Position numbers and translations under genes: made by a program. This document shows positions 1,826 through 20,220 of a DNA stretch of 20,370 nt, piece after piece. The notes under the pieces were generated by a model that made no database searches, was not told where the DNA came from, and was given only the letters and a program-made list of their open reading frames with translations. This DNA comes from Candidatus Eiseniibacteriota bacterium (lineage in GTDB: Bacteria > Eisenbacteria > RBG-16-71-46). How positions within the stretch are numbered: the first letter of the stretch is position 1; each line of letters begins with the position of its first letter. The stretch covers positions 1 to 20,370 of the forward strand of contig JANMQY010000101.1 of NCBI GenBank assembly GCA_031370785.1, in the 5' to 3' direction.

Positions 1826-2781
1826 CTGCGCCCCGCCGCCCGCGCCCAGCGCTGCCCCGGGAGCGCAACCGCCGCACCGCTCCACTCGAGGACAAGGAGC
1901 GCGGCGAGCGCGGCGTCGGGTGCGAGCCCGGATCTGGCCACCAGCGCTTCCACGCCGAGCGGACGCTCTGCGAGCGCAGCGAGGAGGCGTGCCTCGGGCG
2001 TGGCTTCGGCGGGCGGAGTCGAGTCGCAGAGTCGCGCAGGCGCCAGCGCCGGCCGCGCGGCGGATGAGTCGTGCGCGCTCAGCGCGTCGATGATGTCGCC
2101 TGCGTGCGCGCACAGACGCGCGCCGCGTCGGATCAGCTCGTGGACGCCCCGGCTGGTCTCGCGGTCCACATCGCCGGGCACCGCCAGCAACGGGCGGCCA
2201 AGCCGGAGCGCAACCGCGGCGGTGGTGAGCGCGCCGCTGCGCTCGGCGGCCTCGACCACCACCACCGCTGCGGACAGCGCCGCGATCAGGCGGTTGCGGG
2301 TCAGGAACACGCCGCGCCCAGGCGGCGGACCCGAGGCGCGCTCGCTGACCAGCGCACCTTGCGCCGCGATCGATTCGGCGAGCGCCGCGTGATGCAGTGG
2401 AACGATCGCATCCAGTCCGCCGGGAACCACCGCGACCGTGATTCCGTTCGCATCCAGAGCGCCGCAATGCGCGGCGGCATCGATACCGCGCGCGAGCCCG
2501 CTCACCACCGCGAACCCGAGCCCGACCAGATCTCCCGCCAGGCGTCGCGCCTGGGCGAGCCCGTAATCGGAAGCCGCGCGCGAGCCGACCAGCGCCACGC
2601 ACCGCGAGCGCGGCGGCACGACGCCGCGCGTGTAGAGAAACGGCGGAGCATCGGGAAGGTCGAGCAGCGCGGCCGGATATCCATTCGTGCCGCGCGCAGA
2701 GGCGCGAAGCTCTGCGGCCGGCCCCTCGCGCACCAGTGCGCCACCATCGCGAACGCCGCTATGGCTGGGGATCGCCTGCAT
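1822..2781 (-). CDS. dprA: DNA-protecting protein DprA/Smf
   Basis: YPAALLDLPDAPPFLYTRG, VALVGSR, VVSGLARGIDAAAH, FLTRNRLIAALS, VVEAAERSGALTTA, AVPG, plus a C-terminal winged-helix-like segment (LLVLEWSG). Confidence 0.95.
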   Translation of the reverse strand: MQAIPSHSGVRDGGALVREGPAAELRASARGTNGYPAALLDLPDAPPFLYTRGVVPPRSRCVALVGSRAASDYGLAQARRLAGDLVGLGFAVVSGLARGIDAAAHCGALDANGITVAVVPGGLDAIVPLHHAALAESIAAQGALVSERASGPPPGRGVFLTRNRLIAALSAAVVVVEAAERSGALTTAAVALRLGRPLLAVPGDVDRETSRGVHELIRRGARLCAHAGDIIDALSAHDSSAARPALAPARLCDSTPPAEATPEARLLAALAERPLGVEALVARSGLAPDAALAALLVLEWSGAAVALPGQRWARAAGRR

Positions 2782-3427
2782 GGCTGCCGCCCTCTCCCGG
2801 GCGATTCCGGGTGGGCGGGGGCCCGGTGAGCAGTTCCCACTCCACGCCCTCTTCGCTGGCGCGCACCAGAGCGTGATCGTCCGAGAGCCCGCCCTCTTCG
2901 TGCGCCATCAGCTCGTCGCTGCGCATCAGGCGCTCGACACGGTCGAGCAGCGCGCGGTCGCGCTCACCCAGCTCGTCGAGACGGCGTCGCCTGAGATCGG
3001 GCGGCAACCGGTGCATGCCCTGTGCGACCGCGATCGCGCCGCGCTGAAGCCCGATCGCGACCAGGGCGTCGCGCGCCGCGACGGCCACGGTCGCATTCGC
3101 ATCCTCGGCCAGGCGCAGCAGCGCCGGGACCGCGGGGCGATATCCGATCCGCCCGAGCACGCGCGCGGTGCTGGTGCGCGTGAACCACAGACCCTGTTCG
3201 AGCATCGGCAGGAGCACCGGCGCGCCGCGGTCGGCCATGTGCAGGAACGCCTCCTCCGCCAGGTCGCGCAGGTACCACGATTCATCGCACAGGCATTCCA
3301 CCAGCAGCGAGAGCGCCTCGGGATCGGTGCGGGACTCGAGCCCGGCCACGTACTCGCGCTTGGCGGTCAGCCCGCGCGAGCTCAGGAAATCCAGCGGCTT
3401 GCCCTGCGAGAACTTGTCGTCGCTCAT
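2759..3427 (-). CDS. HEAT-repeat (PBS-lyase-like) protein
   Basis: 222 aa. Repeated helical units LVECLCDESWYLRDLAEEAF / LLPMLEQGLWFTRTSTARVLGRIG / LLRLAEDANATVAVAARDALVAIG. ATGA overlap with the obgE stop. Confidence 0.8.
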   Translation of the reverse strand: MSDDKFSQGKPLDFLSSRGLTAKREYVAGLESRTDPEALSLLVECLCDESWYLRDLAEEAFLHMADRGAPVLLPMLEQGLWFTRTSTARVLGRIGYRPAVPALLRLAEDANATVAVAARDALVAIGLQRGAIAVAQGMHRLPPDLRRRRLDELGERDRALLDRVERLMRSDELMAHEEGGLSDDHALVRASEEGVEWELLTGPPPTRNRPGEGGSHAGDPQP

Positions 3428-4434
3428 GCTTCGCTCTCAGGGTCGGCCGGAGCCACGGCCGGCGCGGTGAGCAGCCACAGCTCGTCGAGCAGCTCGCGCA
3501 GTCCATCGCCGGTGTGGGCACTGATCAGGCGCGCATCCGGCAGACCGACGCGCGCGGGCGCTCCCGCGCGATCCTCCGGCGCCAGCAGATCCGACTTGGT
3601 CAGCACCACCACCTTTGGCCGCTCCGCGAGCGCGGCGCTGTGCAGCGCCAGCTCGCGCTCGAGCGTGGCGAGATCGCGCGCCGGATCCTCGGCGGTCACG
3701 TCGAGCAGACAGGCCAGCGCGCGGGTGCGTTCGAGATGGCGCAGGAACTGGAGTCCGAGGCCCTTGCCCTCGTGCGCGCCTTCGATCAGACCGGGTACAT
3801 CCGCAACCACGAAGTTCCGCTCCTCGTCGAGCACCGCGATCCCCAGATTGGGCTCGAGTGTGGTGAAGGGATACGCCGCGATCTTCGGACGCGCCCGAGT
3901 CAGGCGAGACAGCAGCGTGGACTTTCCGGCATTCGGAAGGCCGACCAGACCGACATCGGCGATGAGCTTGAGCTCCAGCTCGAGCCGCCGCTCCTCGCCC
4001 GGCTCGCCGGGATCCGCGCGCCGGGGCGCCTGATGCGTCGAGGTCGCGTAGCGCGCGTTGCCGCGACCTCCGCGCCCACCGCGCGCCGCCACCAGCTCGT
4101 CGCCTTCCTTCAGCAGATCTGCGACCACCTCGCCGGTCTCGACGTCGCGGAGCACGGTGCCCGGCGGGACCTTCACGATCAGGTCTTCGCCGTCGCGCCC
4201 GGTGCGGTTGTTTCCGGACCCGGGACGACCGTGAACCGCACGGTATCGAGGCTGTTCGCGGCAGTCAAGAAGTGTGCGCACGTGAGGGTCGACGCGCAGG
4301 ATCACGCTTCCGCCACGCCCGCCATCGCCACCGTCGGGACCGCCCTTGGGCACGTATTTCTCACGGCGGAAGCTGACGCAGCCCGAGCCACCGTTGCCGG
4401 CCAGCACGTGAATCCGGGTCAGATCGACGAGCAT
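3424..4434 (-). CDS. obgE: GTPase ObgE/CgtA
   Basis: Gly-rich Obg fold (AGNGGSGCVSFRREKYVPKGGPDGGDGGRGG), G1 GLPNAGKS, G2 YPFTT, G3 DVPG, G4 TKSD, G5 ISA. Short form without a C-terminal extension. Confidence 0.97.
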   Translation of the reverse strand: MLVDLTRIHVLAGNGGSGCVSFRREKYVPKGGPDGGDGGRGGSVILRVDPHVRTLLDCREQPRYRAVHGRPGSGNNRTGRDGEDLIVKVPPGTVLRDVETGEVVADLLKEGDELVAARGGRGGRGNARYATSTHQAPRRADPGEPGEERRLELELKLIADVGLVGLPNAGKSTLLSRLTRARPKIAAYPFTTLEPNLGIAVLDEERNFVVADVPGLIEGAHEGKGLGLQFLRHLERTRALACLLDVTAEDPARDLATLERELALHSAALAERPKVVVLTKSDLLAPEDRAGAPARVGLPDARLISAHTGDGLRELLDELWLLTAPAVAPADPESEA

Positions 4435-4436
4435 GG

Positions 4437-5528
4437 CTAGCGCACCCTCGCGCCGAGCGCGGCGATCACGGCATCCGCCATCGCCTCGGTGGTGACGCCA
4501 CGCGCCGCATCCTCAGGGGCATGCAGGTCGCGGGTCACGCAGTGACCCTCGGCGAGCACCTGGGCGATCGAAGCCTCCAGCCTCTCTCCGGCCTCGAATT
4601 CACCGAGGTGCCGCAGCATCGCCGCGCCCGAGAGGATGAGTGCGGTCGGATTCATCATTCCCGATCCTTTGAACTGGGGGGCCGAGCCGTGCACTGGCTC
4701 GAACAGCGCGACCGACTGCCCGTAGTTCGCGCCCGGCGCCACCCCGAGCCCGCCCACCAGGCCCGCGCACAGGTCAGAGACGATGTCGCCGTACAGGTTC
4801 GGCAGCACCAGCACGTCGAACGTCTGGGGACGCTGCACCAGCTGCATGCACAGTGCGTCGACGATCATGTCCTCGAACGCGATCTCGGGGTGCAGTGTGG
4901 CCACCTCGCGCGCGACCTGGAGGAACAGGCCGTCGGTGTACTTCATGATGTTGGCCTTGTGCACCGCGGTGACCTTGCGCCGGCCGTGATGCCGCGCGTA
5001 CTCGAATGCAAACTCCACGATGCGGCGCGAGCCGGTCACCGAGATCGGCTTGAGCGAGAGCGCCGCGTCGTCGCGAATGGTGCGTCCGGTGTGTCGTTCC
5101 ACCACCGCGCGGATCTCGCGCAATCCTTCCGAGCCGCGCTCGAACTCGATGCCGACGTAGAGGTCCTCGGTGTTCTCGCGCACGATTACCAGATCCACCC
5201 CCGGCACCGCATTGCGGATCCCGGAATAGGTGCGCGCCGGGCGCAGATTCGCGAACAGATCCAGCTCGGTGCGGAGCGCGACATTGACCGAGCGGAATCC
5301 GCCCCCGATCGGAGTGGTGAGCGGACCCTTCAAGCCCACCGCGTTGCGCTTGAGCGATTCGATGACGCGCGGCGGCAGCGGCGTGCCCTCGGTCGCCACG
5401 ACGTCGGCTCCCGCGTTCTGCACGTCCCACTCGAACTGGACTCCGGTCGCCTCCAGCGTGCGGCGGGCCGCGGCGGTCAGCTCCGGACCGATCCCGTCGC
5501 CCGGGATCAGGGTGACACGGTGCTTCAA
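4437..5528 (-). CDS. icd: Isocitrate/isopropylmalate dehydrogenase family enzyme, most likely isocitrate dehydrogenase
   Basis: IPGDGIGPE, SVNVALR, NLRP, RENTEDLY, VHKANIMK, NLYGDIVSDL and EPVHGSAP. The S-x-N motif favours isocitrate. TTG start with SD GAGGAGG (5534-5540) 5 nt upstream. Confidence 0.85.
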   Translation of the reverse strand: MKHRVTLIPGDGIGPELTAAARRTLEATGVQFEWDVQNAGADVVATEGTPLPPRVIESLKRNAVGLKGPLTTPIGGGFRSVNVALRTELDLFANLRPARTYSGIRNAVPGVDLVIVRENTEDLYVGIEFERGSEGLREIRAVVERHTGRTIRDDAALSLKPISVTGSRRIVEFAFEYARHHGRRKVTAVHKANIMKYTDGLFLQVAREVATLHPEIAFEDMIVDALCMQLVQRPQTFDVLVLPNLYGDIVSDLCAGLVGGLGVAPGANYGQSVALFEPVHGSAPQFKGSGMMNPTALILSGAAMLRHLGEFEAGERLEASIAQVLAEGHCVTRDLHAPEDAARGVTTEAMADAVIAALGARVR

Positions 5529-5547: not shown

Positions 5548-7416
5548 TCATTCCGGTTCCCGCAGGGTCGCGAGCAGACCGCCGCGGGAGAGGCGGATCA
5601 CCTCGCGCGTATCGAGCGCGTGCCTCACCGTGTACTGGGTGCCCTGCGTGAGATTGCGCGCGACCAGCGCGCGCCCCGGCGCCAGCGCTTCGGGCAGCCC
5701 CGGAATCTCGAGCTCATCTCCGGTCGCGACCGCGCTCGCGTCCGCGCCGCTGACGAACTCGAGAGGCAGTATGCCGCTGAGCGCCGCGAGGTGCGCGAAC
5801 TCGGGCGCGATCGAGCGGGCGAGGAATGCCCGCACGCCGAGCGCGACCGGCGCGAGCGCGGCAGTGTCCCATGCCACGCCGGACCCAAAGCGCTCGCCCG
5901 CCACCAGGAAGCCGCCGCCCGCTTCGCGCGCGTGGCGCGCGAATCCCGGCTCCGCGTCATCGAGCGTGAACTCGGCGAGCGCATCGAGGTCACCGACCAG
6001 CGGCCGCACCTTCGCGCCCCACGGCACCAGCATCTCGGTCGTGACGTCGTCGCCCAGCCGGCGCAGAACCACACCGCGCAACGCGCCTTCGAATGGGCGC
6101 CCGGCCGGAAACCTGGGCGCCTTCGCCGGCGTCTCGGCCGGGCTGCCGAGCCGTGGCGCCTGACCCGCCGCGAACACCAGAGGCGCCGCGCCCTGGCGAG
6201 TGAAATCCAGCACCCGTCGTGGATCCTCGAGCGCGCCCTCGAGCGCCGCCGCGACGCAGGTCGCGATGCCGGCCGCCTGCCAGCGCGAACGCCCGGGCGG
6301 CAGATCGCCGGGTCCGGCGCCGCAGCACAGCCCGAGCGTCGCCGCCACCGGCCTCGCCCCCGCCTCCTCGATCTGCGCCCCGGCCGCGGCGAGGCGTTCG
6401 AGCGTGCCCTGCACCCGCGCGGTCTCGCGCACCTGGCGCGTTCCCGGCACCACCATCACCGTCACCCCCTCGCGAACCCGGTTCTTGCCCAGCAGGTCCG
6501 CGAATCGCGCCAGATCCTCCGCGCTCGCCCCCGGGCCGATCAGCACTCCTTCGACCGCGGTCCCGCGCACCTCGCGTACCGGGCGCGCCGCGGCACGGCG
6601 TTCGAAGGGCGCGGTGAGCGGCTCGATACCGTCGATGTCGAACGGATGAGGCTCGACCGTTCGTGTCGATTCGTCCACGAAGCGCTTCCAGTCGACCTCG
6701 CGTCCCTGCGCCGCGAGCCACGCGCGGGCGTACTCCTCCGAGGGAAACAGGCACGAGCGTGCGCCGCACTCAACCGCGGCGACCGCGAGCGATACGCGGG
6801 CATCGACCGGGAGCGGCGTGCCCGAAAACTCGATGAAACGCGATTCGAGAGGAAGATCCTCGAGCCGTGCGTGCAGTGCGAGTGCGGCATCGTGCCCGTC
6901 CACGCCGGGCCCGAGCGAGCCCGAGATCGCGATCTCGCGCACTCCTGGCCAGCGCAGCTCGACCGGTCGTCCCGCCATCACCGCCGTCAGCTCGAGCGCA
7001 CTCACCGGCAGCGTGAGCATGCCGAGGGCCGCCGCCACCGGCGAGCGGCGGCCAGCCGAGGCCAGCACGCGGGTGGGCGCCGCGAAATGCTCGAGGTGCA
7101 CGCGCTCGCACCGCCCGTCGCCGGGGCGCGAGAACAGCACGCCGAGACGGTGGGCTGCCTGCTGCAGCTCGCGCAGCTCGTCGGCGCTTTCGAAGGCGGC
7201 CTGAGGCGCGTGGCGCTCGGCGCCCACCAGCGCGACTTCGGACCTCGCGCGCTCGAGCCCGAGGCTCTCGAAGGCGGCGAGCGCGACCACGGCGGCCACG
7301 CCGCCGGCCAGCGCGTGATCGGCGCGCACGTCGAGCACCTCGCCGATGCGCGGCCCGTCCGCCTCGAGCGCACCTGCGTTGAGATGCGTGGCGAGAACGC
7401 TCGTGATCAGGCCCAT
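5548..7416 (-). CDS. Aconitase-superfamily protein (single-chain, C-terminal swivel domain), catalytically degenerate pseudo-aconitase
   Basis: 622 aa from ATG 7416 (GAGGG upstream). Colinear with the ~640-aa 'putative aconitate hydratase' type via FSRPGDGRCERVHLEHF, LFPSEEYARAWLAAQGRE, PVREVRGTAVEGVLIG, VVPGTRQV, LGDDVTTE, AALAPVALGVRAFLARS and GGLL, but the Fe-S cysteines and catalytic motifs are absent. Confidence 0.85.
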   Translation of the reverse strand: MGLITSVLATHLNAGALEADGPRIGEVLDVRADHALAGGVAAVVALAAFESLGLERARSEVALVGAERHAPQAAFESADELRELQQAAHRLGVLFSRPGDGRCERVHLEHFAAPTRVLASAGRRSPVAAALGMLTLPVSALELTAVMAGRPVELRWPGVREIAISGSLGPGVDGHDAALALHARLEDLPLESRFIEFSGTPLPVDARVSLAVAAVECGARSCLFPSEEYARAWLAAQGREVDWKRFVDESTRTVEPHPFDIDGIEPLTAPFERRAAARPVREVRGTAVEGVLIGPGASAEDLARFADLLGKNRVREGVTVMVVPGTRQVRETARVQGTLERLAAAGAQIEEAGARPVAATLGLCCGAGPGDLPPGRSRWQAAGIATCVAAALEGALEDPRRVLDFTRQGAAPLVFAAGQAPRLGSPAETPAKAPRFPAGRPFEGALRGVVLRRLGDDVTTEMLVPWGAKVRPLVGDLDALAEFTLDDAEPGFARHAREAGGGFLVAGERFGSGVAWDTAALAPVALGVRAFLARSIAPEFAHLAALSGILPLEFVSGADASAVATGDELEIPGLPEALAPGRALVARNLTQGTQYTVRHALDTREVIRLSRGGLLATLREPE

Positions 7417-7429
7417 GGCGCGGCCACCC

Positions 7430-7828
7430 TCACGAGCCCGAATCCCTCTTCGGTCGATCGCTCTTCGGCCGGTCGCTCTTCGGGTGATCGCTCTTCGGGC
7501 GATCGCTCCTCGACTTCTCGCTGCCGCCAGAGCCGGTTCCGGCCGCGCCGCCCTTCGCGGTCCCTTCGCCCTTCGCAGCCCCTTCGCTCTTCGCAGCCCC
7601 TTCGGTCCCGGCGCCCGACTCCTTTTTCGCGTCCTTGTGATAGCCCGCACTGCGGTAGTCGGTGATGTAGAAGCCGGAGCCCTTGAACAGCAGACCCGCT
7701 CCCCCTGAGGGAACTTTCACGGCGCGCCCGCGGCACTTCGGGCAGCGCCGCGGAGTGTCATCCGACATGCTGTGGAACAGCTCGAACTGGTGCCCGCACT
7801 TGCGGCACCGGTAGTCGTAGGTCGGCAT
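7430..7828 (-). CDS. FmdB-family zinc-ribbon putative regulatory protein with low-complexity tail
   Basis: MPTYDYRCRKCGHQFE...CPKC...FKGSGFYITDY is the typical CxxC-CxxC FmdB signature. SD AGAGGAG upstream. Confidence 0.9.
   Translation of the reverse strand: MPTYDYRCRKCGHQFELFHSMSDDTPRRCPKCRGRAVKVPSGGAGLLFKGSGFYITDYRSAGYHKDAKKESGAGTEGAAKSEGAAKGEGTAKGGAAGTGSGGSEKSRSDRPKSDHPKSDRPKSDRPKRDSGS
7446..7505. repeat. 4 x 15-bp tandem repeat (CTCTTCGGNNG(A/G)TCG) encoding SD(R/H)PK in the FmdB tail
   Basis: Units at 7446, 7461, 7476 and 7491, read directly from the sequence. Confidence 0.9.
7551..7604. repeat. 3 x 18-bp tandem repeat encoding EG(A/T)AK(S/G) in the FmdB tail
   Basis: cccttcgcggtcccttcg / cccttcgcagccccttcg / ctcttcgcagccccttcg at 7551, 7569 and 7587. 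Confidence 0.9.
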
Positions 7829-7880: not shown

Positions 7881-8894
7881 TCAGCTGGCGGTCGGGCCGC
7901 TCGCGGCGCTGAGTGCGCACGCGATGGTGGAAACCTCGGCCACGTCTTCCGCAGTGCAGCCGCGCGACAGGTCGTTGGCCTGTCGCGCGAGTCCCATCAG
8001 GATCGGACCATACGCCTTTGCCTCGGCGAGGCGCTGGACCAGCTTGTATCCGATGTTCCCCGAGTCGAGATCCGGGAACACGAGCACGTTGGCGTGTCCG
8101 GCGACCACGCTGCCCGGGGCCTTGCGCTTCGCCACCCCGGGATCGAGCGCGGCATCGGCCTGCAGCTCGCCGTCGAGGTGCAGATCGGGCCTGAGCGCAC
8201 GCGCGAGCTGGACCGCCTGTCGCACCTTGTCCACGCGCGGGTGGGATGCGGAGCCGCGCGTCGAGAACGAAAGGAACGCGGTGTGCGGCACCTGCCCGGT
8301 CAGGCGCGCGTAATGGTCGGCGGTCAGACATCCGATCTCCGCGAGCTGCTGCGCATCTGGATCCGGCACCACGCCGCAGTCGGCGAATAGAAGCACGCGC
8401 TCCTCGGCGCCCGCGCTTGCCGGCACGACCATCAGGAAGAAGGACGACACGCGCTGGACCCCGGGCGCGAGCCCGATCAGCCACAGCGCCGCGCGCAACA
8501 CGTCGGCGGTAGTGCGCGATGCGCCGGCGACGAAACAATCCGCCAGTCCCTCGCGCACTCGCGCCGCGGCCTGAAACAATGGGTCGCGCGCCAGCGCCTC
8601 GACCTCGGATGCCGCAATCCGGTCGCCGCGCGAGGCGCGAAGCGCGGCCGCGGTGCGCGCGATCTCGGCGGGCTCATTGCTCTCCAGCACCGGCACGCCG
8701 GTGAGCACTGCGCCCGCGGTGCGCGCGGTCGAGCGCACCGTCTCGCGGTCACCGATCAGCGAGACCTCGGCGATTCGATCGCGGGCCAGCCGCTCGGCGG
8801 CATGCACCACGCGCTCGTCTCCGCCCTCGGGCAGCAGCAGCCGCCGCGGGCGCAGGCGCGCCTGGCGCCGGATGCGCTCGAGGATCGCGCTCAT
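7881..8894 (-). CDS. pta: Phosphate acetyltransferase (short, catalytic-domain-only form)
   Basis: LLLPEG, VSSFFLM, FADCG, FLSFSTRGS, DGELQADAAL, ANVLVFPDLDSGNIGYKL and GPILMGLARQANDLSRGC. Confidence 0.92.
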   Translation of the reverse strand: MSAILERIRRQARLRPRRLLLPEGGDERVVHAAERLARDRIAEVSLIGDRETVRSTARTAGAVLTGVPVLESNEPAEIARTAAALRASRGDRIAASEVEALARDPLFQAAARVREGLADCFVAGASRTTADVLRAALWLIGLAPGVQRVSSFFLMVVPASAGAEERVLLFADCGVVPDPDAQQLAEIGCLTADHYARLTGQVPHTAFLSFSTRGSASHPRVDKVRQAVQLARALRPDLHLDGELQADAALDPGVAKRKAPGSVVAGHANVLVFPDLDSGNIGYKLVQRLAEAKAYGPILMGLARQANDLSRGCTAEDVAEVSTIACALSAASGPTAS

Positions 8895-12192: not shown

Positions 12193-13560
12193 CTAGTTGC
12201 TGGCCAGCGACGTCACCAGGCGCGGCGTCACGAAGATGATCAGCTCGCGATTCTGGCGAACCGACGTGTCCGACCGGAACAGCATCCCGAGCAGCGGGAT
12301 GTCCTTCAGGAACGGAACGCCACGGCGCACGGTCGAGTCGTTGGTGCGGATCAGGCCGCCGATCACCGCGGTCTGCCCGTCGTCCACCATGACGCGCGTG
12401 TCGGCTTCACTGGTGTTGATGATCACGCCGCCCTGCACCGTGCTCTGGCTGGACAGATCGCTCACTTCAGGATGCAGATCCATGATGATCTTCTTGTCCT
12501 GGGTGAGGTGCGGCGTCACTTTGAGCTGGATACCGATGGTCTGCAGCTGCGAGACCGGATTGCCCGCGACGTCCTGCACGATGAGCGGAATCTTCTGGCC
12601 GACGAGGATCTTCGCCTCGCGGTTGTCCACCGTGGTGATGCGCGGGTTCGAGATGATGTTGGCCTTGCGGTTCTGCTCGAGCATCTGGATCTGGGCCTCG
12701 ACCGAACCCCACTTCTTGAAGATTCCGTACGCGAGCCGCAGCGCCGGATCGGCGATCGGCGTCTTGTGAATCCCGACCACAACCTGGTCCGGATCGTTGC
12801 CCGGATTCGGCGCATGCGGCGTGTTCGTCGGAGTACCGTCGAAGAATTCCATCCCGTCCGGCGATTCCGAGGTGCCGCCCAGGTTCCACTCGATTCCCAG
12901 GCCACGCAACGCCTCGGCGTCGACGTCCACCAGCTTCGCGGTGATCTCGATCTGCGGCGTGGTCGAGTCGAGATCGGAAGCCATCTTCTCGAGACGATCC
13001 AGGTTGCTCGCCAGATCGCTGATGATCAGCGAGTTGGTGCGCTTCTCGGCGGTGATGCTGCCACGCCGCGTCAGCGAACCCTGCAGCGCGATCTGCATCT
13101 CGCCGACGTTCGCATAGTTCAGCTTCACGATGCGCGTCTCGAGCGGCGCCACTTCGGCCTGCTTGGCGCGCGCCTGTTCGCGATCCACGGCTTCGGCGGA
13201 GAGCTTGGCCGCGTCGTCGACGCGGATGATTCCGCCCTCTGAGACGTAGTCGAGGCCGTTCATGCGCAAGACGGTGCGCAGCGCCTCTTCCCAGCCCACA
13301 TTCTTGAGCGACGCCTTCACCGTTCCCTTGACGCCGCTGCCGAGAACGATATTGCGACCGCTGAACTCCGCAATCGCACGGATCACGGTGCGGATGTCCG
13401 CGCCTTCGACATCGAGGCTGAACGTCCCGCCACCCGTGCGGACCAGACCGACCTGCTGCATGGCCGAGGACTGTTGCGCCGCGGCAGGCTTCACCGCGAT
13501 CGCCGCCAGCGAGACGCCGGCGATCAGGACCAGGGCCGCCAGGACTTTAGCGGTTCGCAT
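12193..13560 (-). CDS. pilQ: Type IV pilus secretin PilQ (short, no AMIN domains)
   Basis: Signal peptide; N0 (FSLDVEGADIRTVIRAIAEFSGRNIV...WEEAL); N domain (LNYAN...EKRTNSLIISD); secretin domain (PQIEITAKLV, ISNPRITT, LKVTPH, GQTAVIGGL, VPFLKDIPLLGMLF, ELIIFVTP). Confidence 0.95.
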   Translation of the reverse strand: MRTAKVLAALVLIAGVSLAAIAVKPAAAQQSSAMQQVGLVRTGGGTFSLDVEGADIRTVIRAIAEFSGRNIVLGSGVKGTVKASLKNVGWEEALRTVLRMNGLDYVSEGGIIRVDDAAKLSAEAVDREQARAKQAEVAPLETRIVKLNYANVGEMQIALQGSLTRRGSITAEKRTNSLIISDLASNLDRLEKMASDLDSTTPQIEITAKLVDVDAEALRGLGIEWNLGGTSESPDGMEFFDGTPTNTPHAPNPGNDPDQVVVGIHKTPIADPALRLAYGIFKKWGSVEAQIQMLEQNRKANIISNPRITTVDNREAKILVGQKIPLIVQDVAGNPVSQLQTIGIQLKVTPHLTQDKKIIMDLHPEVSDLSSQSTVQGGVIINTSEADTRVMVDDGQTAVIGGLIRTNDSTVRRGVPFLKDIPLLGMLFRSDTSVRQNRELIIFVTPRLVTSLASN

Positions 13561-13561
13561 T

Positions 13562-14329
13562 CTAGTTCTCTCCCTTTCGCGTCAGCGGAATGACCACCGA
13601 CTCTGACTGACCATCCACAGTGAGGTTCACGAGCACCGCGTCCCGCTTCAGGTCCGAGACAACGCCATTCATCACCTTGTCTCCCTGGCGCAGCACGAGG
13701 CTGTTGCCACGGGCATCTTCGGCCAGGGCGAACTTGTCGTTCGTCCCCCAGACGATACCGACCACCTTGATGGCGCCGACGTCGACCGGAGCGTCGCCGC
13801 CCACGTCGTTGCCGACGAATCCGCCGTCCACCATCGCCTGGAAGGGATCCCGGCGACCGAGCGCGTTGTACTGATACGTCACCCGATCCTCGAGATGCGC
13901 GGAAGGCTGCACCACGACGCTTTTCGCGGTGGCCGGCTTCGACTTCATCGCCGAAGCAACCGGCGTCACGACCGCTGAAGGCTTCGTGCTCGACGCCGCT
14001 TTCCCACTCCACGTCGCCTTCGTCACCGCGGCGGCCGGAGCCTTCGCGGGCGTCCCCGCCACAGTTGCCGGAGATTTCGCAGGCGTCGCCACCGGCGTTG
14101 CCGGGGCGTTCGCAGGCGTCGCGACCGGAGTCGTCTTCGGAGCGCTCGCGGACGGCTCGACCCTGGTCGGGGCCGCATCCGCGCTAGCCGGAGTCACCCA
14201 CTCGCCCGTGGTCCGCAGGACGAGGGAGCCGCCAGCGCCCATCACGAGCCCCGCCGTGAGCAGTCCAGCGAGGATCCGCAGGGTGCCCGCATTCGAGGCG
14301 GCCGAAACTTCAGGACGCTTTGTGCGCAT
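13562..14329 (-). CDS. pilP: PilP-like pilus assembly protein with Pro/Ala/Thr-rich linker, no lipobox
   Basis: Located between pilO and pilQ. YQYNALGRRDPF motif followed by a beta domain (IKVVGIVWG...ALAEDARGNSLVLRQGDKVMNGVVSDL). Confidence 0.75.
   Translation of the reverse strand: MRTKRPEVSAASNAGTLRILAGLLTAGLVMGAGGSLVLRTTGEWVTPASADAAPTRVEPSASAPKTTPVATPANAPATPVATPAKSPATVAGTPAKAPAAAVTKATWSGKAASSTKPSAVVTPVASAMKSKPATAKSVVVQPSAHLEDRVTYQYNALGRRDPFQAMVDGGFVGNDVGGDAPVDVGAIKVVGIVWGTNDKFALAEDARGNSLVLRQGDKVMNGVVSDLKRDAVLVNLTVDGQSESVVIPLTRKGEN
14033..14131. repeat. 3 x 33-bp degenerate tandem repeat (TPVATPANAPA / TPVATPAKSPA / TVAGTPAKAPA) in the PilP linker
   Basis: Core ttcgc(a/g)ggcgtc recurs at 14043, 14076 and 14109. 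Confidence 0.85.
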
Positions 14330-14954
14330 TGTTCTCCCCTTCCTTCTTCACCGGAGCGGGCTCTGCGGCCGGCGCGGGCGACGTATTGAGGCTGTATGCG
14401 GAGGCGGTGAACTCGATCGAGGTGATCAGGTTTCCGTCCTTCTTGTTGGTGTTGGGAGTGATGTGCAGATTCGCGACCGTGATGATGCGCCGCATGTTCG
14501 CCAGCTCGGCGAGGAAGGAACCGACCTGGTGGTACCCGCCGTTCACCTTGATCTGCATCGGGACCTCGGTGTAGTACTGCTCGCTTTTCGGCGGAGCCGG
14601 ACGGAAGGCCTGGAACTGGACACCCGTCTCCTGCGCGGCCAGCGTCACCTTGCGCAGCAGCGTCGCGAGCTCTCGATCGGTCGGCAGCAGCTCAGCCGCC
14701 ATGTACCAGCGCTCGTGCAACTGCTCGTACTCCGCCTCGAAGCGAGGCAGATCGGCGACCGTGGCGCGCGCGCGCGCGAGCTCGGTGTTCTTGTGCTCGA
14801 AGTCGGCCTTGAGCAGGCTGATCTTCTCGCTCTGCACGGGGAAGCTGAACGGCAGGAAGTGGGTGAAGAAGAACACCCCCACCACTCCCGCCGCGAGCAC
14901 CGCGGTCAGAATCAGCTTCTGCACTCCTGGATTCTTCAGATCGATGTTGGGCAT
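14310..14954 (-). CDS. pilO: Type IV pilus assembly protein PilO
   Basis: N-terminal TM, coiled coil, LLPTDRELATLL, YYTEVPMQIKVNGGYHQVGSFLAELANMRRII. Confidence 0.92.
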   Translation of the reverse strand: MPNIDLKNPGVQKLILTAVLAAGVVGVFFFTHFLPFSFPVQSEKISLLKADFEHKNTELARARATVADLPRFEAEYEQLHERWYMAAELLPTDRELATLLRKVTLAAQETGVQFQAFRPAPPKSEQYYTEVPMQIKVNGGYHQVGSFLAELANMRRIITVANLHITPNTNKKDGNLITSIEFTASAYSLNTSPAPAAEPAPVKKEGENNAHKAS

Positions 14955-14967
14955 GGGAGTCTCCTCG

Positions 14968-15537
14968 TCAGTTGGCGGGTTCGTCCGCCGTGACCTTGCA
15001 GGTCACGCGGAACTTCACCACTTCGTGGTCCGTCATCTGGCTTCGCTCTGCGAATCCGAGCTCGACACCTGCGAACATCGGGGAGCGCTCGAGACGCGAC
15101 ATGAAATCGGAGACCACCAGGTTCGAGAACGTGACCCCCTCCAGACTGATCGAGCTACCCGCATCCTGCGTCGCTGCGACCAGCCAGAGGTGGTCGGGCA
15201 CACAGCGCGCGAGCTCATCCATGAGTCGAACGCTCTGAGTACGACCCTTCTCAAGCTTGTTGATGATGCCGAGTCGCAGATCCAGCTCGGCCCGCTCCTG
15301 CGCGAGGCGCTGAACCCGGGCGATCTGCGGCGCGAGAGCGCGTGACTGCGCTTCGACGTCGGCGATCGAATGGGTGAGCGAATTGATGCGCGAGGTCTGC
15401 GAAACTACGGTCCCGGCCACGACCAGTCCGGTCGCCAGCAGCACGACCGCGGGGACGACCATGTCTCCGACCTTGAAACTGAAGGCGGGCTTGCGCTGGG
15501 ACTTGCCCTCATTCGGCAGCAAATTGATGCGGATCAT
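14968..15537 (-). CDS. pilN: Type IV pilus assembly protein PilN
   Basis: Starts MIRINLLP (PilM-binding INLLP motif); TM, coiled coil, VPDHLWL and FMSRLERSPMF. ATGA overlap with pilM. Confidence 0.93.
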   Translation of the reverse strand: MIRINLLPNEGKSQRKPAFSFKVGDMVVPAVVLLATGLVVAGTVVSQTSRINSLTHSIADVEAQSRALAPQIARVQRLAQERAELDLRLGIINKLEKGRTQSVRLMDELARCVPDHLWLVAATQDAGSSISLEGVTFSNLVVSDFMSRLERSPMFAGVELGFAERSQMTDHEVVKFRVTCKVTADEPAN

Positions 15538-16589
15538 TTCTTGTCCCCCAGTCGGCGCAAGGCGAGCCCGACGCCGACCGTCAGAAGAGGCGCCACCTTC
15601 ATGACGTCCTGTCCGGCGAAGAGCGCCGGGTCGTAGCTGATGCGGGCCAGAGGGTTCGCAATCTCGGCCGGAACGCCGAAACGACGGTTGAGGAATTCCG
15701 ACACGCCCGGTGTCATCGAAGCGCCGCCACACAGCATGATGCGCGTCACCGGTCCGGCTTCGCCGGCGGTGCGCAGGTAGGCCTGCGCCCGCTCCAGCGC
15801 CGTCGCCAGACCTTCGCAGGCCTGCTCGATCACCGGAACGACGTCGAGCCCGGCGCCGGACTCACCGCGAACGGCTGCGGCGGCCTCGCCCTGGCTCAGG
15901 TTGAACTTGCGCTGGGCACCCTCGATGAACGAGTTGCCACCGACCTGCAGGTCCTTGGTGAAGTACGGAACACCCGCCTGCGTGATGTTGATGTTCGTGA
16001 TCTCGGCCCCGATGTTGAGGATCGCGATCACATCCTCGGGGCTGAAGTCGTAGTTGGCCGCCAGCGCGTTCTGCGCGGCGAACGAATCCACGTCGACGAT
16101 CAACGGCTGAAGGCCGGCCTCGCGGATCAGGTCGCTGAAGGACATGACCATGTCCTTCTTGGCCGCGACCAGCAGAACCTGCATCTGCTTGGGGTCGTTC
16201 GGCGCGGCGCCCAGGATCTCGAAGTCGAGCGACACGTCGTTGATGTCGTAGGGGACGTGCTGCTCGGCTTCCCAGTACACGGCCTGCTGTGCGTCCTCGG
16301 CCGAGAGCTTGTTCATCGTGATCTTCTTCACGATCACTGCGCGACCGCTGACCGCAGCCACGACGTTCTTCGAGCGGATCCCGCGCGACTCGAGCAGATT
16401 CGAGATCGCGTCGGTCACGAGCTGACGATCCATGATTTCGCCGTCGACGATCGCTTCGGCGAGCGGAGCGGAGATACCCCAGTTCACGAGCTTGAAGCTC
16501 TTGTTCGACTGGGATTCGAGCTCGACCGCCTTGATCGCGTGGCTTCCGATGTCCAGCCCCACGAGGGACTGCTTCTTCCCGAAGAGCAT
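15534..16589 (-). CDS. pilM: Type IV pilus assembly protein PilM (actin-like)
   Basis: VGLDIGSHAIKAVEL, AVIVKKI, EAEQHVPY, VLLVAAKK, LNIGA, LCGGAS, ANP and VGLALR. Confidence 0.96.
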   Translation of the reverse strand: MLFGKKQSLVGLDIGSHAIKAVELESQSNKSFKLVNWGISAPLAEAIVDGEIMDRQLVTDAISNLLESRGIRSKNVVAAVSGRAVIVKKITMNKLSAEDAQQAVYWEAEQHVPYDINDVSLDFEILGAAPNDPKQMQVLLVAAKKDMVMSFSDLIREAGLQPLIVDVDSFAAQNALAANYDFSPEDVIAILNIGAEITNINITQAGVPYFTKDLQVGGNSFIEGAQRKFNLSQGEAAAAVRGESGAGLDVVPVIEQACEGLATALERAQAYLRTAGEAGPVTRIMLCGGASMTPGVSEFLNRRFGVPAEIANPLARISYDPALFAGQDVMKVAPLLTVGVGLALRRLGDKK

Positions 16590-16715
16590 CTCTTCACTCC
16601 CTGAGAGCGCTCACGGCTTGCACCGGTTCGCTCGGCTGGACCGCTCGCCTGGACCGGCGCACGCGGTGTGTAGGTCTATTCGATCTGGGGCCGTGTCCTT
16701 CGGCCTGCCGTCCCA

Positions 16716-16752
16716 TGCATCGGACGTTGCCAAACTCGACTTGAGTGCCAAA
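16716..16752 (-). promoter_or_regulatory. Tandem imperfect sigma54-like (-24) boxes upstream of pilM
   Basis: Minus strand TTTGGCACtcaagTCGAg TTTGGCAacgtccgATGCA. The first copy is GG-N10-GA and the second is GG-N11-GC; neither is fully canonical. Confidence 0.3.
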
Positions 16753-16802
16753 TGCAGTTGAACCGTGCAGGGGGCCGGAATCCGGGTCCTGGGTTCGATG
16801 AC

Positions 16803-17567
16803 TCACTTGAGCAGGACCACCGGAGTGGGCAGTTTCCGCACCGCCATCTCCCGGCGTCCGGTCTCGAGCGCCCGGCGGATCTTCTCCATCTCCTTCTGGG
16901 CGATTTCGCGCAGGTAGTGATTCTGGGAATGGTTGCGAACGTCCTCCCACAGCGAGTAGGCCACGACCAGGTCGCCCGAGTGCTGCCGGGCATAAGCCGC
17001 GAAGCGGGCTGCCTGGGGCGGCGCGCCGGGAAGTCGTGCCGCCTGCTGGAAATACTCGGCGGCACGACGCAGCTGGCGGCCGCCGGGCTGCACGTAGTAG
17101 AGGAAGCCCAGCTGAAAGGCGAGTCGCGCGCTACCCGGGTTGGCGGCGATCCCCTTGAGCATCAGACGCTCGGCGCGCGGGAAGTCCCTTCCCTCCTGTG
17201 CGAGCGCGAAGGCTCCGAACTCGTACGCGGCCTCGAAGCGCGGCGCGAGCGAGGTGAGGATGTCGAAGACGTGCCCCATGCGGGCGAACTGGTTGTCGGC
17301 CAGGCGATGCTCGCCGTAGTACTGGATCGCACGCAGCCAGGCGAGGTCGGCCGCGGTTTCGGCGTGGCCGAGAGTCGCGGGCTCGAGGTGAGCTCCGGAT
17401 GGGTAGTAGGAAAGTTCTTCGAGCGGGCGGGGCGGAGGCAGCGCACGCGCCGCGTAGCCGGCGAGGCCGCATGCCGCCGCGCCGAGCACCAATCCCATCG
17501 CCCAGGCGATCGCCATGCGCTCGCGAACGCCCAGCGCCCGCGCTCGCGCCCGGGCGGCGACGCTCAT
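16803..17567 (-). CDS. Membrane-anchored TPR-like protein, Myxococcus PilG / Geobacter XapA-like
   Basis: ATG 17567 overlaps the permease stop. N-terminal [43 protein letters not shown] and [15 protein letters not shown] helical repeats. Context next to the pilus-associated ABC genes. Confidence 0.7.
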
Positions 17568-18328
17568 TTGAAGTCTCTCGACTCGAACGCGGCGCTCGCC
17601 AGGCACAGCACGCACGCCACGTACACCGCGGCGTACGCGGTCGCGACCGCGAGATGCCACGGCGTGGTCAGCTCTCCGGCGGCGGCAAGGGTGCGCATGT
17701 TGAAGAGCGGCAGATTCGGCGCGAGGTTGGCCGCGGTTCCGAGCAGCGTCGAGAGCGGCGCCGGAACGTGTCCTGCGAAGCTGCGCAGATCGTAGCTCCA
17801 CTGCCCGACCAGATAGAGGCCGAGCGTGTAGAGCGCGGAGAGCACCGGCGTGGACAGCGACGAGAACAGCACGGCACACGCGGTCACGACCGAGAGTTCC
17901 AGTCCGGCCAGATACGTCGCCTGAAGGATGGAAGCGGTGTGATCGGCATTGCCGCGCGAGAGCAGCACCAGCCACAGCCCCGCCCCAAGCCCCGCAGTCA
18001 CGACCCACAGCGCGCCGGCGAGTCCCGCCCACTTGCCCACCAGATAGGCGGGGCGGGTGATGGGCCGCGACAGCAGGTTGAAGATGGTGCGTCGATCGAT
18101 TTCCTTGGCGACGAGACTCGAGCCCACCAGCAGCACCACCAACAGGCCGAGCATCGAGATCGCGCTCAGGCCCAGATCGATGGTGAGGCGGAGTCCCTCG
18201 CCGAGCGCGAGCGGGCTCATCACCTGGGTGGCGATCAGGATCACCAGCCCCGCAATCATCACCCCGCTCAGCATCCGGTCGCGAGTCGCTTCGCGGAACG
18301 TGTTCTGCGCGATCAGGCCGGCGTTCAC
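17564..18328 (-). CDS. ABC-2-type permease, PilI-like
   Basis: GTG 18328 (GTGA overlap). [39 protein letters not shown], about six hydrophobic segments, C-terminal FESRDFK. Confidence 0.88.
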
Positions 18329-19344
18329 GCGCTCCTCCGCTCCTCGGAGCTTTCGGCGGCGCTCAGGAACAGCTCCTCGAGGCTCGCGCGCTGCGGCGAG
18401 ACCGCACGCACCCGCACTCCGGAGCGGAGCAGCCAGGCCAGCACGTCGTTGAGCAGATGCTCCTGCTCGACCACGAACACCGTGTCGCTGCCGTGCTCGC
18501 GCCGGGTCACGGTCGTGCTCCACGCCGGCGGAATCTCGATGACCGTGACGCCGCTGCACTGCACTTCGACGCGCTGGCGACCGTCGTGCACCAGCTCGCC
18601 GACGTCGGCGATGCGGCTGAGCCTGCCGTCGAGCACGATCGCGACCCGATCGCACAGCATTTCCACGTCGGGAAGGATGTGCGAGGAGAACATCACGGTG
18701 ACGCCGCGCTCATGCTGCTCCAGGATCAGCTCGCGGACGTCGCGGCGGCCGAGCGGATCGAGCCCGCTCATCGGCTCATCGAGGATCAGCAGCTCGGGGT
18801 CGTGCACCAGCGCGGAGGCGAGGCCCAGACGCTGCAACATGCCCTTGGAGTACTTGCGCAGATTCAGATCGGGGCGCTCGCCCAGGCCCACGCGGCCGAG
18901 CCAGTGACGAGCAAGCGTGTCCGCCTCGTGCGACGCGAGCCCGGACAGCTGGCCTGCCATCTTCAGGTACTCGCGTCCGTTCAGGTAGTCGTAGAAATAT
19001 GGCTGCTCGGGCAGGAAGCCCAGACGGCGGCGGCTCTCGGGGCTCGCGATCGGAATGCCCATCAGCCAGGCTTCGCCGCGAGTGGGCTTGAGCAGGCCGG
19101 TGAGCAGCTTGAGCGTGGTGGTCTTCCCCGCTCCGTTCGGGCCGAGATAACCGAGCACCGCGCCACGCGCGACCTCGAGGTTCAGGTCTTCGAGCCCGCG
19201 GGTGACTTTCAGCGTCCAGGGACTGCGATAGAACTTGGAGAGGCCCCGGGCCGAGATCGCCAGGTCCCGGTTCGAGTCGGACGCGGTCCCAGCGGGGCGA
19301 TCAATCCCGTGCCGCTCCGCACTGCGAACGCCTGGACTCTGCAC
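18325..19344 (-). CDS. ABC transporter ATP-binding protein, PilH-like
   Basis: Walker [22 protein letters not shown], signature YSKGM, Walker [15 protein letters not shown]-loop SSH. GTG start with GGAGGG SD. Confidence 0.93.
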
Positions 19345-19445
19345 GGCTTCCCTCCGGCTTGCGTGGGCAGGCCTCTGCTAAGTGCTTGAGGCGCCGCACG
19401 AACGCATCAGAATCGATTGGGGTGTGGAACCAGGCGATTGCGGAA

Positions 19446-19461
19446 TGCAACGACTATGCCG
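19446..19461 (-). promoter_or_regulatory. Putative sigma54 (-24/-12) promoter for the ABC ATPase-permease-TPR genes
   Basis: Minus strand CGGCATagtcgTTGCA: GG-N10-GC spacing with a consensus TTGCA. Confidence 0.6.
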
Positions 19462-19502
19462 CCTGGGTCCGCTCGCAGCTGAGGCGCGCCTAGGAGGCGC
19501 GG

Positions 19503-19940
19503 TTACTGGCCGGTCGTGAGAACGAGGGTCAGGGTGTCGCCGAGCGGGCCGTTGCCCTTGAGATAGTAGAGATTGTCCGTCACCGGATTGAACGCCATCT
19601 CGCCCGGATTGCCCAAAGAGGGATTCGCGTTCCAGTTCACCACCGACGGCAGCTTGGTGAACGGATTGACCGGGAAGACCCCGCCCGGGCACATCTGGGC
19701 GAGAGTGCGGCCGTCCTGTGTCGTCGAACCCGCAGCCGTGGCGTAGATGCCGTTGTTGAGAATCGAGAAGTCTTCCATGACCAGCTGCAGCGTGTGCATG
19801 TTCGCCTTCACCCTCGACTCCTGGGCGCGGCGCTGGAGCGAGATGAAGTTCGGAATCGCAATGGACGCGAGGATGCCGACGATCAATACCACGATCATGA
19901 GCTCGATGAGCGTGAATCCGCTGGATGTGCGAGCGTGCAT
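19503..19940 (-). CDS. Type IVa prepilin (N-terminal methylation motif)
   Basis: MHARTSSG|FTLIELMIVVLIVGILASIAIPNF with G-1, F1, E5 and P22; 145 aa. GAGG SD before ATG 19940. Confidence 0.93.
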   Translation of the reverse strand: MHARTSSGFTLIELMIVVLIVGILASIAIPNFISLQRRAQESRVKANMHTLQLVMEDFSILNNGIYATAAGSTTQDGRTLAQMCPGGVFPVNPFTKLPSVVNWNANPSLGNPGEMAFNPVTDNLYYLKGNGPLGDTLTLVLTTGQ

Positions 19941-19984
19941 CGTCTGCCTCGAGTTCTGGTGAGATTCGTACCCATTCCATCTAT

Positions 19985-20000
19985 TGCAGCGCACGTGCCA
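19985..20000 (-). promoter_or_regulatory. Putative sigma54 (-24/-12) promoter for the pilin gene
   Basis: Minus strand TGGCACGtgcgCTGCA, close to the TGGCACG-N4-TTGCW consensus, 45 nt upstream of the pilin ATG. Confidence 0.75.
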
Positions 20001-20220
20001 CTCGGTCCCGGATGCGGAACAATCGCCAAGTCGATGAGGCTGCACGGTCTGCGCGGAATCAGCGGATTCGACCCGTCGGGAGACGCCTTGCGGGCTGCAT
20101 GATGCCTGGTCGGCCGCCATGCGAACCGCGACGACCCTCGTCCAGTTGAGCCAGCGCACCCGGACCCAGGGCTCGAGCGCCAGGCGGTGTGCAGCAATCC
20201 CAGGCTCGCCATTCCCGCAC

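Follow-up and report, generated by a model that had tools for sequence, protein, structure and literature searches.

Why would a bacterium keep, among its housekeeping genes, an aconitase from which nearly every residue needed for catalysis has gone? This question is raised by a stretch of 20,370 nucleotides (nt) from a Candidatus Eiseniibacteriota bacterium (assembly GCA_031370785.1, contig JANMQY010000101.1; hereafter the window), in which a gene at 5548 to 7416 encodes a full-length pseudo-aconitase that we call AcnP. We find that AcnP has lost the active site and, in a structural model, retained the fold; that it evolves under purifying selection; that the loss has a single origin; and that constraint has shifted to domain 4. 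AcnP is very probably a selected, non-catalytic protein. The fuller statement that it is a non-catalytic scaffold or regulator which docks a conserved partner through domain 4 has, in our estimate, a probability of about 0.5.

Loss of the active site within an aconitase fold retained in the model

The gene and the segments in which its active-site motifs would be expected are located as follows.

5548..7416, minus strand: open reading frame of the pseudo-aconitase (AcnP, P0001), 622 residues, single-chain fold of the TIGR01342/PRK07229 type
7042..7053, minus strand: GRRS in place of the catalytic DSHT, residues 122-125 (alignment to P0012)
6523..6540, minus strand: IGPGAS, residues 293-298, first Fe-S cysteine (C358) lost (alignment)
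6343..6369, minus strand: replaced CGPC loop (second and third Fe-S cysteines), residues 350-358, with no conserved replacement
5866..5880, minus strand: GVAWD, residues 513-517, in place of GSSRE with the catalytic Ser and substrate Arg (alignment)

Translation of the frame from 7416 down to 5548 gives 622 residues with zero internal stops. The product matches both Pfam domains above their gathering cut-offs (Aconitase, E 1.7e-31; Aconitase_C, E 1.1e-5) and aligns to pig aconitase 1c96 with E 3.4e-21 (phmmer). Its top NCBIfam match, PRK07229 (NF005558), scores 280 bits against a cut-off of 612, and TIGR01342 scores 258 bits against a curated cut-off of 719. An AlphaFold model built from a 33-row alignment shows four domains, with a mean pLDDT (predicted local distance difference test) of 91.3 and a pTM (predicted template-modelling score) of 0.91. 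Over its full length this model superposes on mitochondrial aconitase (VIA Z 36.7, root-mean-square deviation (rmsd) 5.0, 608 residues), its residues 1-401 superpose on M. jannaschii LeuC (VIA Z 38.9, rmsd 2.6), and Foldseek matches it to aconitases end to end (E 4e-43). The ESM Atlas returned aconitase clusters only, the top one with 70 members, most commonly Eiseniibacteriota. By both Pfam domains and the four-domain model AcnP belongs to the aconitase superfamily fold; with scores below the NCBIfam cut-offs, and with ligands and catalytic residues gone, it would not pass as a PRK07229/TIGR01342 equivalog. A preliminary description of this DNA, made from the letters alone, had proposed an intact frame colinear with aconitases over 622 residues. 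Translation and model bear this out, and the profile search and structure prediction which it suggested gave the two domain matches and the retained fold reported here. The share of Gly, Ala, Arg and Pro is 0.45 in AcnP versus 0.31-0.39 in three intact homologues, and the net charge of the protein is -13.

For the active site, pig residue numbers (in part those of the preliminary description) were mapped through the motifs of an intact homologue, P0012. Aligned to this enzyme, AcnP retains one of 22 scored active-site residues (one of 21 in a second scoring). QD has become GG, DH is ER, GICHQ is GRCER, N258 is V, TTDH is TTEM, R580 is V, SSR is VAW, and NRNF.GR is replaced; every substitution listed in the preliminary description was found in this alignment. 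The same losses recur in 78 homologues, which we refer to as the dead clade (median net charge -8). None of the three Fe-S cysteines is kept in AcnP, and the three columns hold cysteine in 0, 1 and 0 of the 78, the CGPC-loop columns contributing the 1 and the second 0; a two-residue deletion that removes the first cysteine (IGP-GAS) is common to all 78. Across the clade the DSHT columns keep D once, S six times and H once, and the GSSRE columns keep S in 3/78 and R in 26/78. The catalytic His101 and Ser642 (pig numbering) are absent from AcnP and present in three dead homologues each, while the substrate arginines 447, 452, 580 and 644, all absent from AcnP, survive in 0, 1, 29 and 26. The D100 column holds D or E in 53 of the 78. 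E262, the sole scored residue that AcnP keeps, is indeed retained as previously described, but its retention is incidental, since only 11 of the 78 have it. One automatic alignment had offered C364/C365 as retained CGPC ligands; a local-pair alignment and the model strand 361-365 place them on the following strand, and the candidate was dropped. A new residue set conserved in the cleft, which the preliminary description had proposed to look for, was not found either: the alignment of all 78 dead homologues holds zero conserved replacement residues in the former cleft.

Single origin, selection and distribution

The phylogenetic sample consisted of the best 150 of 1,180 hits (E<=1e-30) from a protein library clustered at 50% identity, and among these homologues retention of the active site ranges from 22/22 down to 0/22 sites. 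In a 145-row FastTree tree the 78 dead proteins are monophyletic with support 1.0 and sit on a long stem, and the clade, sampled by 20 rows, was recovered in a 46-row subset under the mixture model LG+C20 with an SH-aLRT (approximate likelihood-ratio) support of 100. Mean pairwise identity within it is 37%. Its sister consists of L033, from the same locus in genome G004, and P0037; both keep 13-14 of 21 sites, L033 with all three Fe-S cysteines and P0037 with two. Because AcnP is nested among PRK07229-type proteins and has a partly intact sister at the same locus, it appears to descend from within the PRK07229/TIGR01342 lineage, other aconitase subfamilies lying outside this tree. In G004 the partly degenerate orthologue with three cysteines is found at L037:2337-3527, and about 1.2 kb lies between pta and fmdB, as in several other families.

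Degenerate proteins of the PRK07229 type were also seen outside the Eisenbacteria clade. P0090, P0097 and P0107 (which carry Lys/Arg-rich tails), P0120, P0084 and P0080 have lost the cysteines and most catalytic residues, and the first five of these lack the domain-4 signature described below. A separate origin of the P0090/P0097/P0107 lineage is suggested by one tree, the 46-row one. In P0082, P0098, P0106, P0115, P0117, P0125, P0128, P0170 and others, all of the PRK07229 type, Ser stands at the first Fe-S cysteine of an otherwise near-intact active site, possibly with ligation of the cluster by two cysteines.

Selection was estimated with pairwise codon models (GY94, F3x4) on 23 disjoint pairs. 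The synonymous rate dS was below 1.5 in 12 of them; of the others, ten were saturated and one was identical, and these were left out. In the 12 unsaturated pairs, seven of which come from one genus and are thus not fully independent, the ratio of nonsynonymous to synonymous rates (dN/dS, omega) of AcnP is 0.023-0.136, close to that of its neighbours in the pairs which cover them (pta, 0.023-0.070; obgE, 0.027-0.056). Between the AcnP of the window and a metagenomic relative (L059) omega is 0.024 over the first 164 codons, with a likelihood-ratio statistic of 99 against omega = 1. AcnP is constrained, yet less so than an enzyme. Judged from these sequences, it has what would be expected of a pseudoenzyme: an intact frame under purifying selection.

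AcnP stands at its locus, in the slot fmdB-(icd)-obgE, in 74 of the 89 genomes of its family of uncultured bacteria, whole or as a fragment at a contig end, and a further 11 match its profile, by profile match only. In the other four (G001, G021, G096, G202) obgE is unmatched as well, a sign of assembly gaps, so that no clean loss of AcnP was seen across the 89 family genomes. A profile tally of 79/86 was set aside as a count, as some of its matches are other aconitase-family genes (for example in G184). The fmdB-obgE region of 12 genomes from other families is empty in five (fmdB directly before obgE; families f2, f3, f4 and f17), holds icd alone in two and an intact split LeuC/LeuD-type pair in two, and in the remaining three shows other arrangements before obgE with zero aconitase match. 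Since other families lack AcnP in this slot, its function would be particular to its own family. The split pair was seen in family f13 and is HacA/HacB-like (L086:6918-8584 in G059, L087:3914-5647 in G104); the slot thus repeatedly hosts aconitase-family or icd genes. One genome of another family, G038, entered only the overall tallies, and none of the claims depends on it. The named relatives of AcnP are mostly Ca. Eisenbacteria (P0008, L054, P0294, P0298), one (P0301) being source-labelled Ca. Udaeobacter. Scans with single proteins gave one Eisenbacteria orthologue among three loci and three close orthologues among 11 loci.

The search for a second, intact aconitase, also suggested in the preliminary description, was successful: the genome that carries AcnP encodes an AcnA with intact motifs, its gene being divided between two contigs with an overlap of 141 nt. 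Another gene of this genome (G000:C59:7515-9566, L003:538-2589) was seen to encode a fused enzyme, with a LeuD-like and then a LeuC/HacA-like domain, intact cysteine motifs and scores below all NCBIfam cut-offs. With AcnA and this fused enzyme in the genome, citrate isomerisation would be independent of AcnP. The earlier proposal of a selected pseudoenzyme rather than a decaying gene is upheld by dN/dS, which on the orthologues is far from neutral, by synteny throughout the family and by the intact AcnA in the same genome.

Constraint in domain 4 and the readings of AcnP

The following segments carry the residues that are conserved in the dead clade.

5551..6096, minus strand: residues 441-622, forming the swivel domain (domain 4), where the dead clade is most constrained
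6073..6081, minus strand: LRG with R447 of AcnP, Arg in 76/78 dead proteins and variable in intact enzymes
6010..6024, minus strand: PWGx[R/K] loop, residues 465-469, with W466 in 52/78 (A in 139/147 intact proteins) and R469 in 75/78
5689..5721, minus strand: GDELEIPGLPE, residues 566-576, with E568 in 72/78 and E570 in 78/78
5641..5658, minus strand: RNLTQG, residues 587-592, with R587 in 78/78 and L589 in 77/78
6685..6705, minus strand: GRExDW[K/R], motif of domain 2, residues 238-244, with R239, W243 and K/R244 each in 78/78

The mean share of the top residue in the dead clade is 0.57 in domain 4 versus 0.39-0.50 in domains 1-3; among intact enzymes of comparable divergence (27 sequences), by contrast, the highest values are those of domains 1b and 2, at 0.62-0.63 versus 0.54 in domain 4. 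The dN of domain 4 is below that of the rest of AcnP, which includes a variable linker, in 15 of 17 pairs. Five residues, R447, E568, E570, R587 and L589 (AcnP numbering), occur together in 71 of the 78 dead proteins against two of 147 intact ones, and in 58 of 60 syntenic loci that cover domain 4 (two of the 60 being identical). A search with a domain-4 profile, which is circular for the motif, added 75 further dead proteins, 73 of them with all five residues. In L119, R447 has changed to L and E568 to I together, which fits a cross-strand contact. In the AlphaFold model the five columns alternate along strands 446-453, 568-571 and 584-588, and in intact enzymes they are polar and variable, as expected for surface sites; taken together with the topology of the swivel domain, this suggests that the five residues are solvent-exposed on its outer antiparallel sheet. 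In the GRExDW[K/R] motif R239 and W243 are largely inherited, and the column of K/R244 is variable in intact enzymes. By homology, the PWGx[R/K] loop probably lies at the rim of the cleft, between TTDH and the R580 motif.

These observations might be explained as follows. The ancestor would have been an intact single-chain aconitase of the PRK07229 type inside a housekeeping operon. Its Fe-S ligands and catalytic residues would have been lost once, in the ancestor of the family, with AcnA or another aconitase supplying the chemistry, and AcnP would then have been retained as a folded non-catalytic protein. On the outer sheet, remote from the old cleft, the charged residues among the five may line up as a ladder with the exposed leucine in its middle, and this patch, together with the GRExDW[K/R] motif of domain 2, might dock a slowly evolving partner, most likely a protein, either another copy of AcnP or a housekeeping protein. 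AcnP would act as a scaffold or regulator, and among the options offered in the preliminary description a scaffold fits best. All five residues are already present in P0037 (L033 ends before domain 4), which suggests a moonlighting surface that outlived catalysis. In a further-reaching version, which we regard as doubtful, a surface on an active aconitase became near-essential and catalysis was then discarded, leaving an adaptor that couples a housekeeping machine to the metabolic state; such a machine could be ObgE with ribosome assembly, or the acetyl-CoA enzymes Pta and CoaD of the same operon.

Several points weigh against a docking surface on domain 4. Three intact enzymes (P0345, P0349, P0358) have four of the five residues, which suggests that the ladder was inherited and frozen rather than invented, and it could equally be a stabilising salt-bridge network. 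The surface location is deduced from strand alternation and the topology of the swivel domain; the motif counts come partly from sequences selected by profile; and GC pressure could account for the shifts at R469, R529 and R591, in each of which K has given way to R. No informative fusion of domain 4 was found among 120 proteins listed by the domain-4 profile search. Over long distances the dN of AcnP is typically two to four times that of obgE and pta, and sister families run the same operon without the gene. The AcnP gene is frameshifted in five genomes (G009, G012, G025, G094, G155); of these, G012 and G094 also have frameshifts in neighbouring genes, which the other three lack, so that AcnP may really be decaying in a few lineages. 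One record of 730 residues, P0055, was seen to join Pta and AcnP in frame, both parts truncated; it is probably a deletion or an assembly chimera.

Other roles would lie in the former cleft. It is rather unlikely that AcnP is a small-molecule sensor in which citrate or some other metabolite, bound in the cleft now free of the cluster or at its rim (W466, R469), shifts domain 4 and so sends a signal through the outer patch. Such a sensor would make sense of the whole four-domain architecture, of the new W466 and the prevalent R469 in a loop that probably faces the cleft, and of the acidic D100 column, but the substrate-binding arginines are all lost or variable, conserved replacements in the cleft are lacking, W466 is often replaced and the K-to-R change at 469 may reflect base composition. 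By residue equivalences which we take to hold between IRP1 and AcnP, the dead clade lacks the IRP-type features, that is, the cleft segments for RNA contact and R713/R780; on the same assumption the PWGx[R/K] loop presumably corresponds to part of the domain-4 C-bulge pocket of IRP1, which would favour RNA binding. A regulator that is always apo and, like IRP2, binds RNA in the opened cleft, the leading idea of the preliminary description, has precedents in IRP2 itself (PMC3048577) and in the apo form of B. subtilis CitB (PMC7430163), and the AcnP model aligns to IRP1 bound to its iron-responsive element (IRE) (3sn2, Z 21.8). IRP1, however, grips IREs via 436-442, 534-544, R713 and R780 (PMC3048577), and in the dead clade the equivalents of the two segments are deleted (78/78 for the C358 column, 73-74/78 for the NR columns) and those of R713 and R780 are Arg in only 29/78 and 26/78; R780Q alone weakens IRP1 binding about 20-fold (PMC7003851). 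Moreover, the net charge is negative, the AcnA of the same genome retains the RNA-contact elements and could fill such a role, and the model is closer to closed aconitases (Z 36-37) than to RNA-bound IRP1 (Z 22), with the reservation that models tend toward the closed form. With the contact elements deleted or variable and the charge negative, this idea does not hold up well and is quite unlikely. A new, cluster-independent enzyme is very unlikely. Aconitase X shows that a superfamily member can be rewired in ligands and reaction (PMC5144071), and some columns of the dead clade are well conserved (H11 86%, H34 71%, C387 77%, H599 85%), but the cleft has zero invariant His, Cys or Asp, several genera have C, P, L or A in place of H599, intact enzymes share the structural positions H11 and D33, and the cysteine ligands of AcnX have no conserved counterpart in the dead clade (0-4 Cys in the region).

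The remaining alternatives concern the surface, the neighbours or the absence of any function. Binding of nucleic acid or the ribosome through the outer surface of domain 4, possibly with ObgE in ribosome assembly, would draw on conserved basic residues (R116, K/R244, R447, R469, R529, R587, R591, R610) and on the position of the gene directly upstream of obgE wherever icd is absent; we consider it unlikely, as the invariant set has as many acidic residues (E568, E570, D/E240, D242) and ObgE works without AcnP in the five genomes where fmdB directly precedes obgE. That AcnP is a regulatory subunit of the adjacent isocitrate dehydrogenase (IDH) is highly improbable: in the window icd follows AcnP at a short distance, and the PDB contains an integrative AcnA-IDH model (9a4j), but only 11 of the 89 family genomes have an adjacent icd orthologue, and AcnP is maintained without it, its motif unchanged. 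For the same reason icd was dropped as an obligate partner; more distant IDH-family paralogues are present in most family genomes, and one of these might take the place of the adjacent icd. A relic in slow decay, whose frame stays open through GC-rich codon usage and its place in an essential operon, would agree with the high Gly/Ala/Arg/Pro share, the long branches and the five frameshifted genomes. It is scarcely credible, being largely refuted by an omega of 0.02-0.14, and length, domain order and invariant residues have been conserved at 37% mean identity, while icd has disappeared from this slot much more easily. A non-catalytic scaffold or regulator acting through domain 4 is the reading that we prefer to all of these.

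Operon context, other aconitases and significance

The gene order around AcnP is rsmD-coaD-pta-fmdB-[AcnP]-icd-obgE-HEAT-dprA, with the following features.

7881..8894, minus strand: pta, phosphotransacetylase, conserved upstream context (profiles and synteny)
7430..7828, minus strand: fmdB, gene of the FmdB zinc-ribbon family, conserved upstream neighbour (profiles and synteny)
7417..7432, minus strand: fmdB stop codon and 13-nt spacer with a GAGGG Shine-Dalgarno-like sequence ahead of the AcnP ATG (sequence)
4437..5528, minus strand: icd, isocitrate/isopropylmalate dehydrogenase family, directly downstream of AcnP (Pfam/NCBIfam profiles)
3424..4434, minus strand: obgE, ObgE GTPase, directly 3' of the pseudo-aconitase where icd is absent (profile and synteny)
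2759..3427, minus strand: gene of a HEAT-repeat protein after obgE (profile)

From AcnP to the TTG start of icd there are 19 nt, with GAGGAGG; the Shine-Dalgarno sequence and tight operon spacing described previously are both present. In the icd product the cofactor-specificity loop reads HGSAPQFKG, the catalytic motifs look intact by eye, and the score is below every NCBIfam IDH cut-off (best 382 vs 510). The low-complexity tail of FmdB (window 7430-7650) consists of EGAAK/EGTAK repeats and four SDRPK/SDHPK units, and its length varies among relatives. AcnB carries a HEAT domain, and this analogy had prompted the idea of the HEAT protein as a specific partner of AcnP; it was dropped, since 114 of the 151 genomes sampled from the class have a match to this protein, which is thus not specific to the AcnP family. 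Rfam gave zero matches within the window, no promoter-like site was found, and terminator-like sites number two against 3.3 expected. Two runs labelled as RNA (X9, X10) are DNA-like, with flat-depth contigs of 6-13 kb over several genes and longest records above 50 kb. Elsewhere in the window, 12193-20159 holds a type IV pilus cluster (PilQ/P/O/N/M-like genes, an ABC transporter and a pilin, named from reading of the frames), in which GC is 0.63-0.70 per kb versus 0.69-0.74 over most of the first 12 kb.

An AcnA match is present in 75 of the 89 family genomes. AcnP is present without one in G020 (one contig, 94% complete) and in G010 (100% complete), which makes AcnA doubtful as an obligate partner. 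In G019 the pseudo-aconitase is the only Pfam Aconitase match; G010 and G019 have either assembly gaps or no canonical aconitase. Aconitase matches in frames of 546-729 residues in G010, G094 and G153 may be the same fused LeuD/LeuC-like gene as in the genome of the window. The AcnA of G018 (L068:290-4624) and of G028 (L069:786-5225) has an insert of about 510 residues at the third Fe-S cysteine (GCTT/C...HN/CIGN), with weak Intein_splicing Pfam matches below the cut-off (E 1e-7 and 1e-6). As the insert sits at this cysteine, splicing would be needed to form the cluster site. Frames of 1,300-1,600 residues that resemble such an intein-type AcnA were seen in about 20 family genomes, and the AcnA of the genome of the window is without an insert.

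Among known systems, the PRK07229/TIGR01342 aconitases resemble AcnP in length (about 600-650 residues), domain order 1-2-3-linker-4 and phylogenetic origin; unlike them, AcnP is without the cysteines, DH, DSH, SSR and substrate arginines and has near-invariant R/E/E/R/L in domain 4. Like AcnP, IRP2 (IREB2) and apo-IRP1 keep the aconitase fold without catalysis (model matches 6vcd, Z 21.6, and 3sn2), but the IRPs are of the AcnA lineage and bind RNA in the cleft, whereas constraint in AcnP is mainly on domain-4 strands that probably face outward. The aconitases AcnA and AcnB of E. coli moonlight. Moonlighting bacterial aconitases switch reversibly with the Fe-S cluster and stay enzymes, while AcnP, without cluster ligands, cannot sense iron in this way. 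CitB of B. subtilis, which binds RNA when apo and is thought to work like IRP1 (PMC7430163), resembles our reading of AcnP in putting an aconitase scaffold to a non-catalytic job. Aconitase X (AcnX/LhpI) is, like AcnP, a diverged superfamily member with changed ligands (PMC5144071; model match Z 15.6-16.4), but it is an enzyme with Cys and Glu metal ligands, whereas AcnP matches neither this ligand pattern nor the AcnX profile, lacks any conserved set of ligands and stands far nearer to the true aconitases. IRP2, which neither assembles a cluster nor keeps active-site residues and binds IREs only (PMC3048577), is the known precedent for a dead aconitase; the AcnP clade adds a family-wide case, a candidate surface and an evolutionary intermediate. 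No published description of a dead AcnP clade was found in the literature searched, which contains only a minority of subscription papers.

Bacterial aconitases are textbook moonlighters, and their non-catalytic jobs are hard to separate from catalysis. A dead clade is a natural separation of function: 78 divergent dead proteins point to five residues of domain 4, away from the RNA-binding cleft, as the target of selection, and the sister, with its active site partly preserved, indicates in which order the changes probably took place. If the adaptor version of our reading were true, we would have in the G004/P0037 lineage a surviving intermediate, and the surface would expose a moonlighting site so far overlooked in ordinary aconitases. 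For annotation, many dead homologues are called 'aconitate hydratase' by JGI and would wrongly be counted as enzymes of the tricarboxylic acid cycle. With other degenerate lineages in the tree, loss of catalysis in the aconitase fold looks recurrent rather than unique, which makes it less surprising and gives it wider relevance, and a non-RNA moonlighting role of the swivel domain becomes directly testable.

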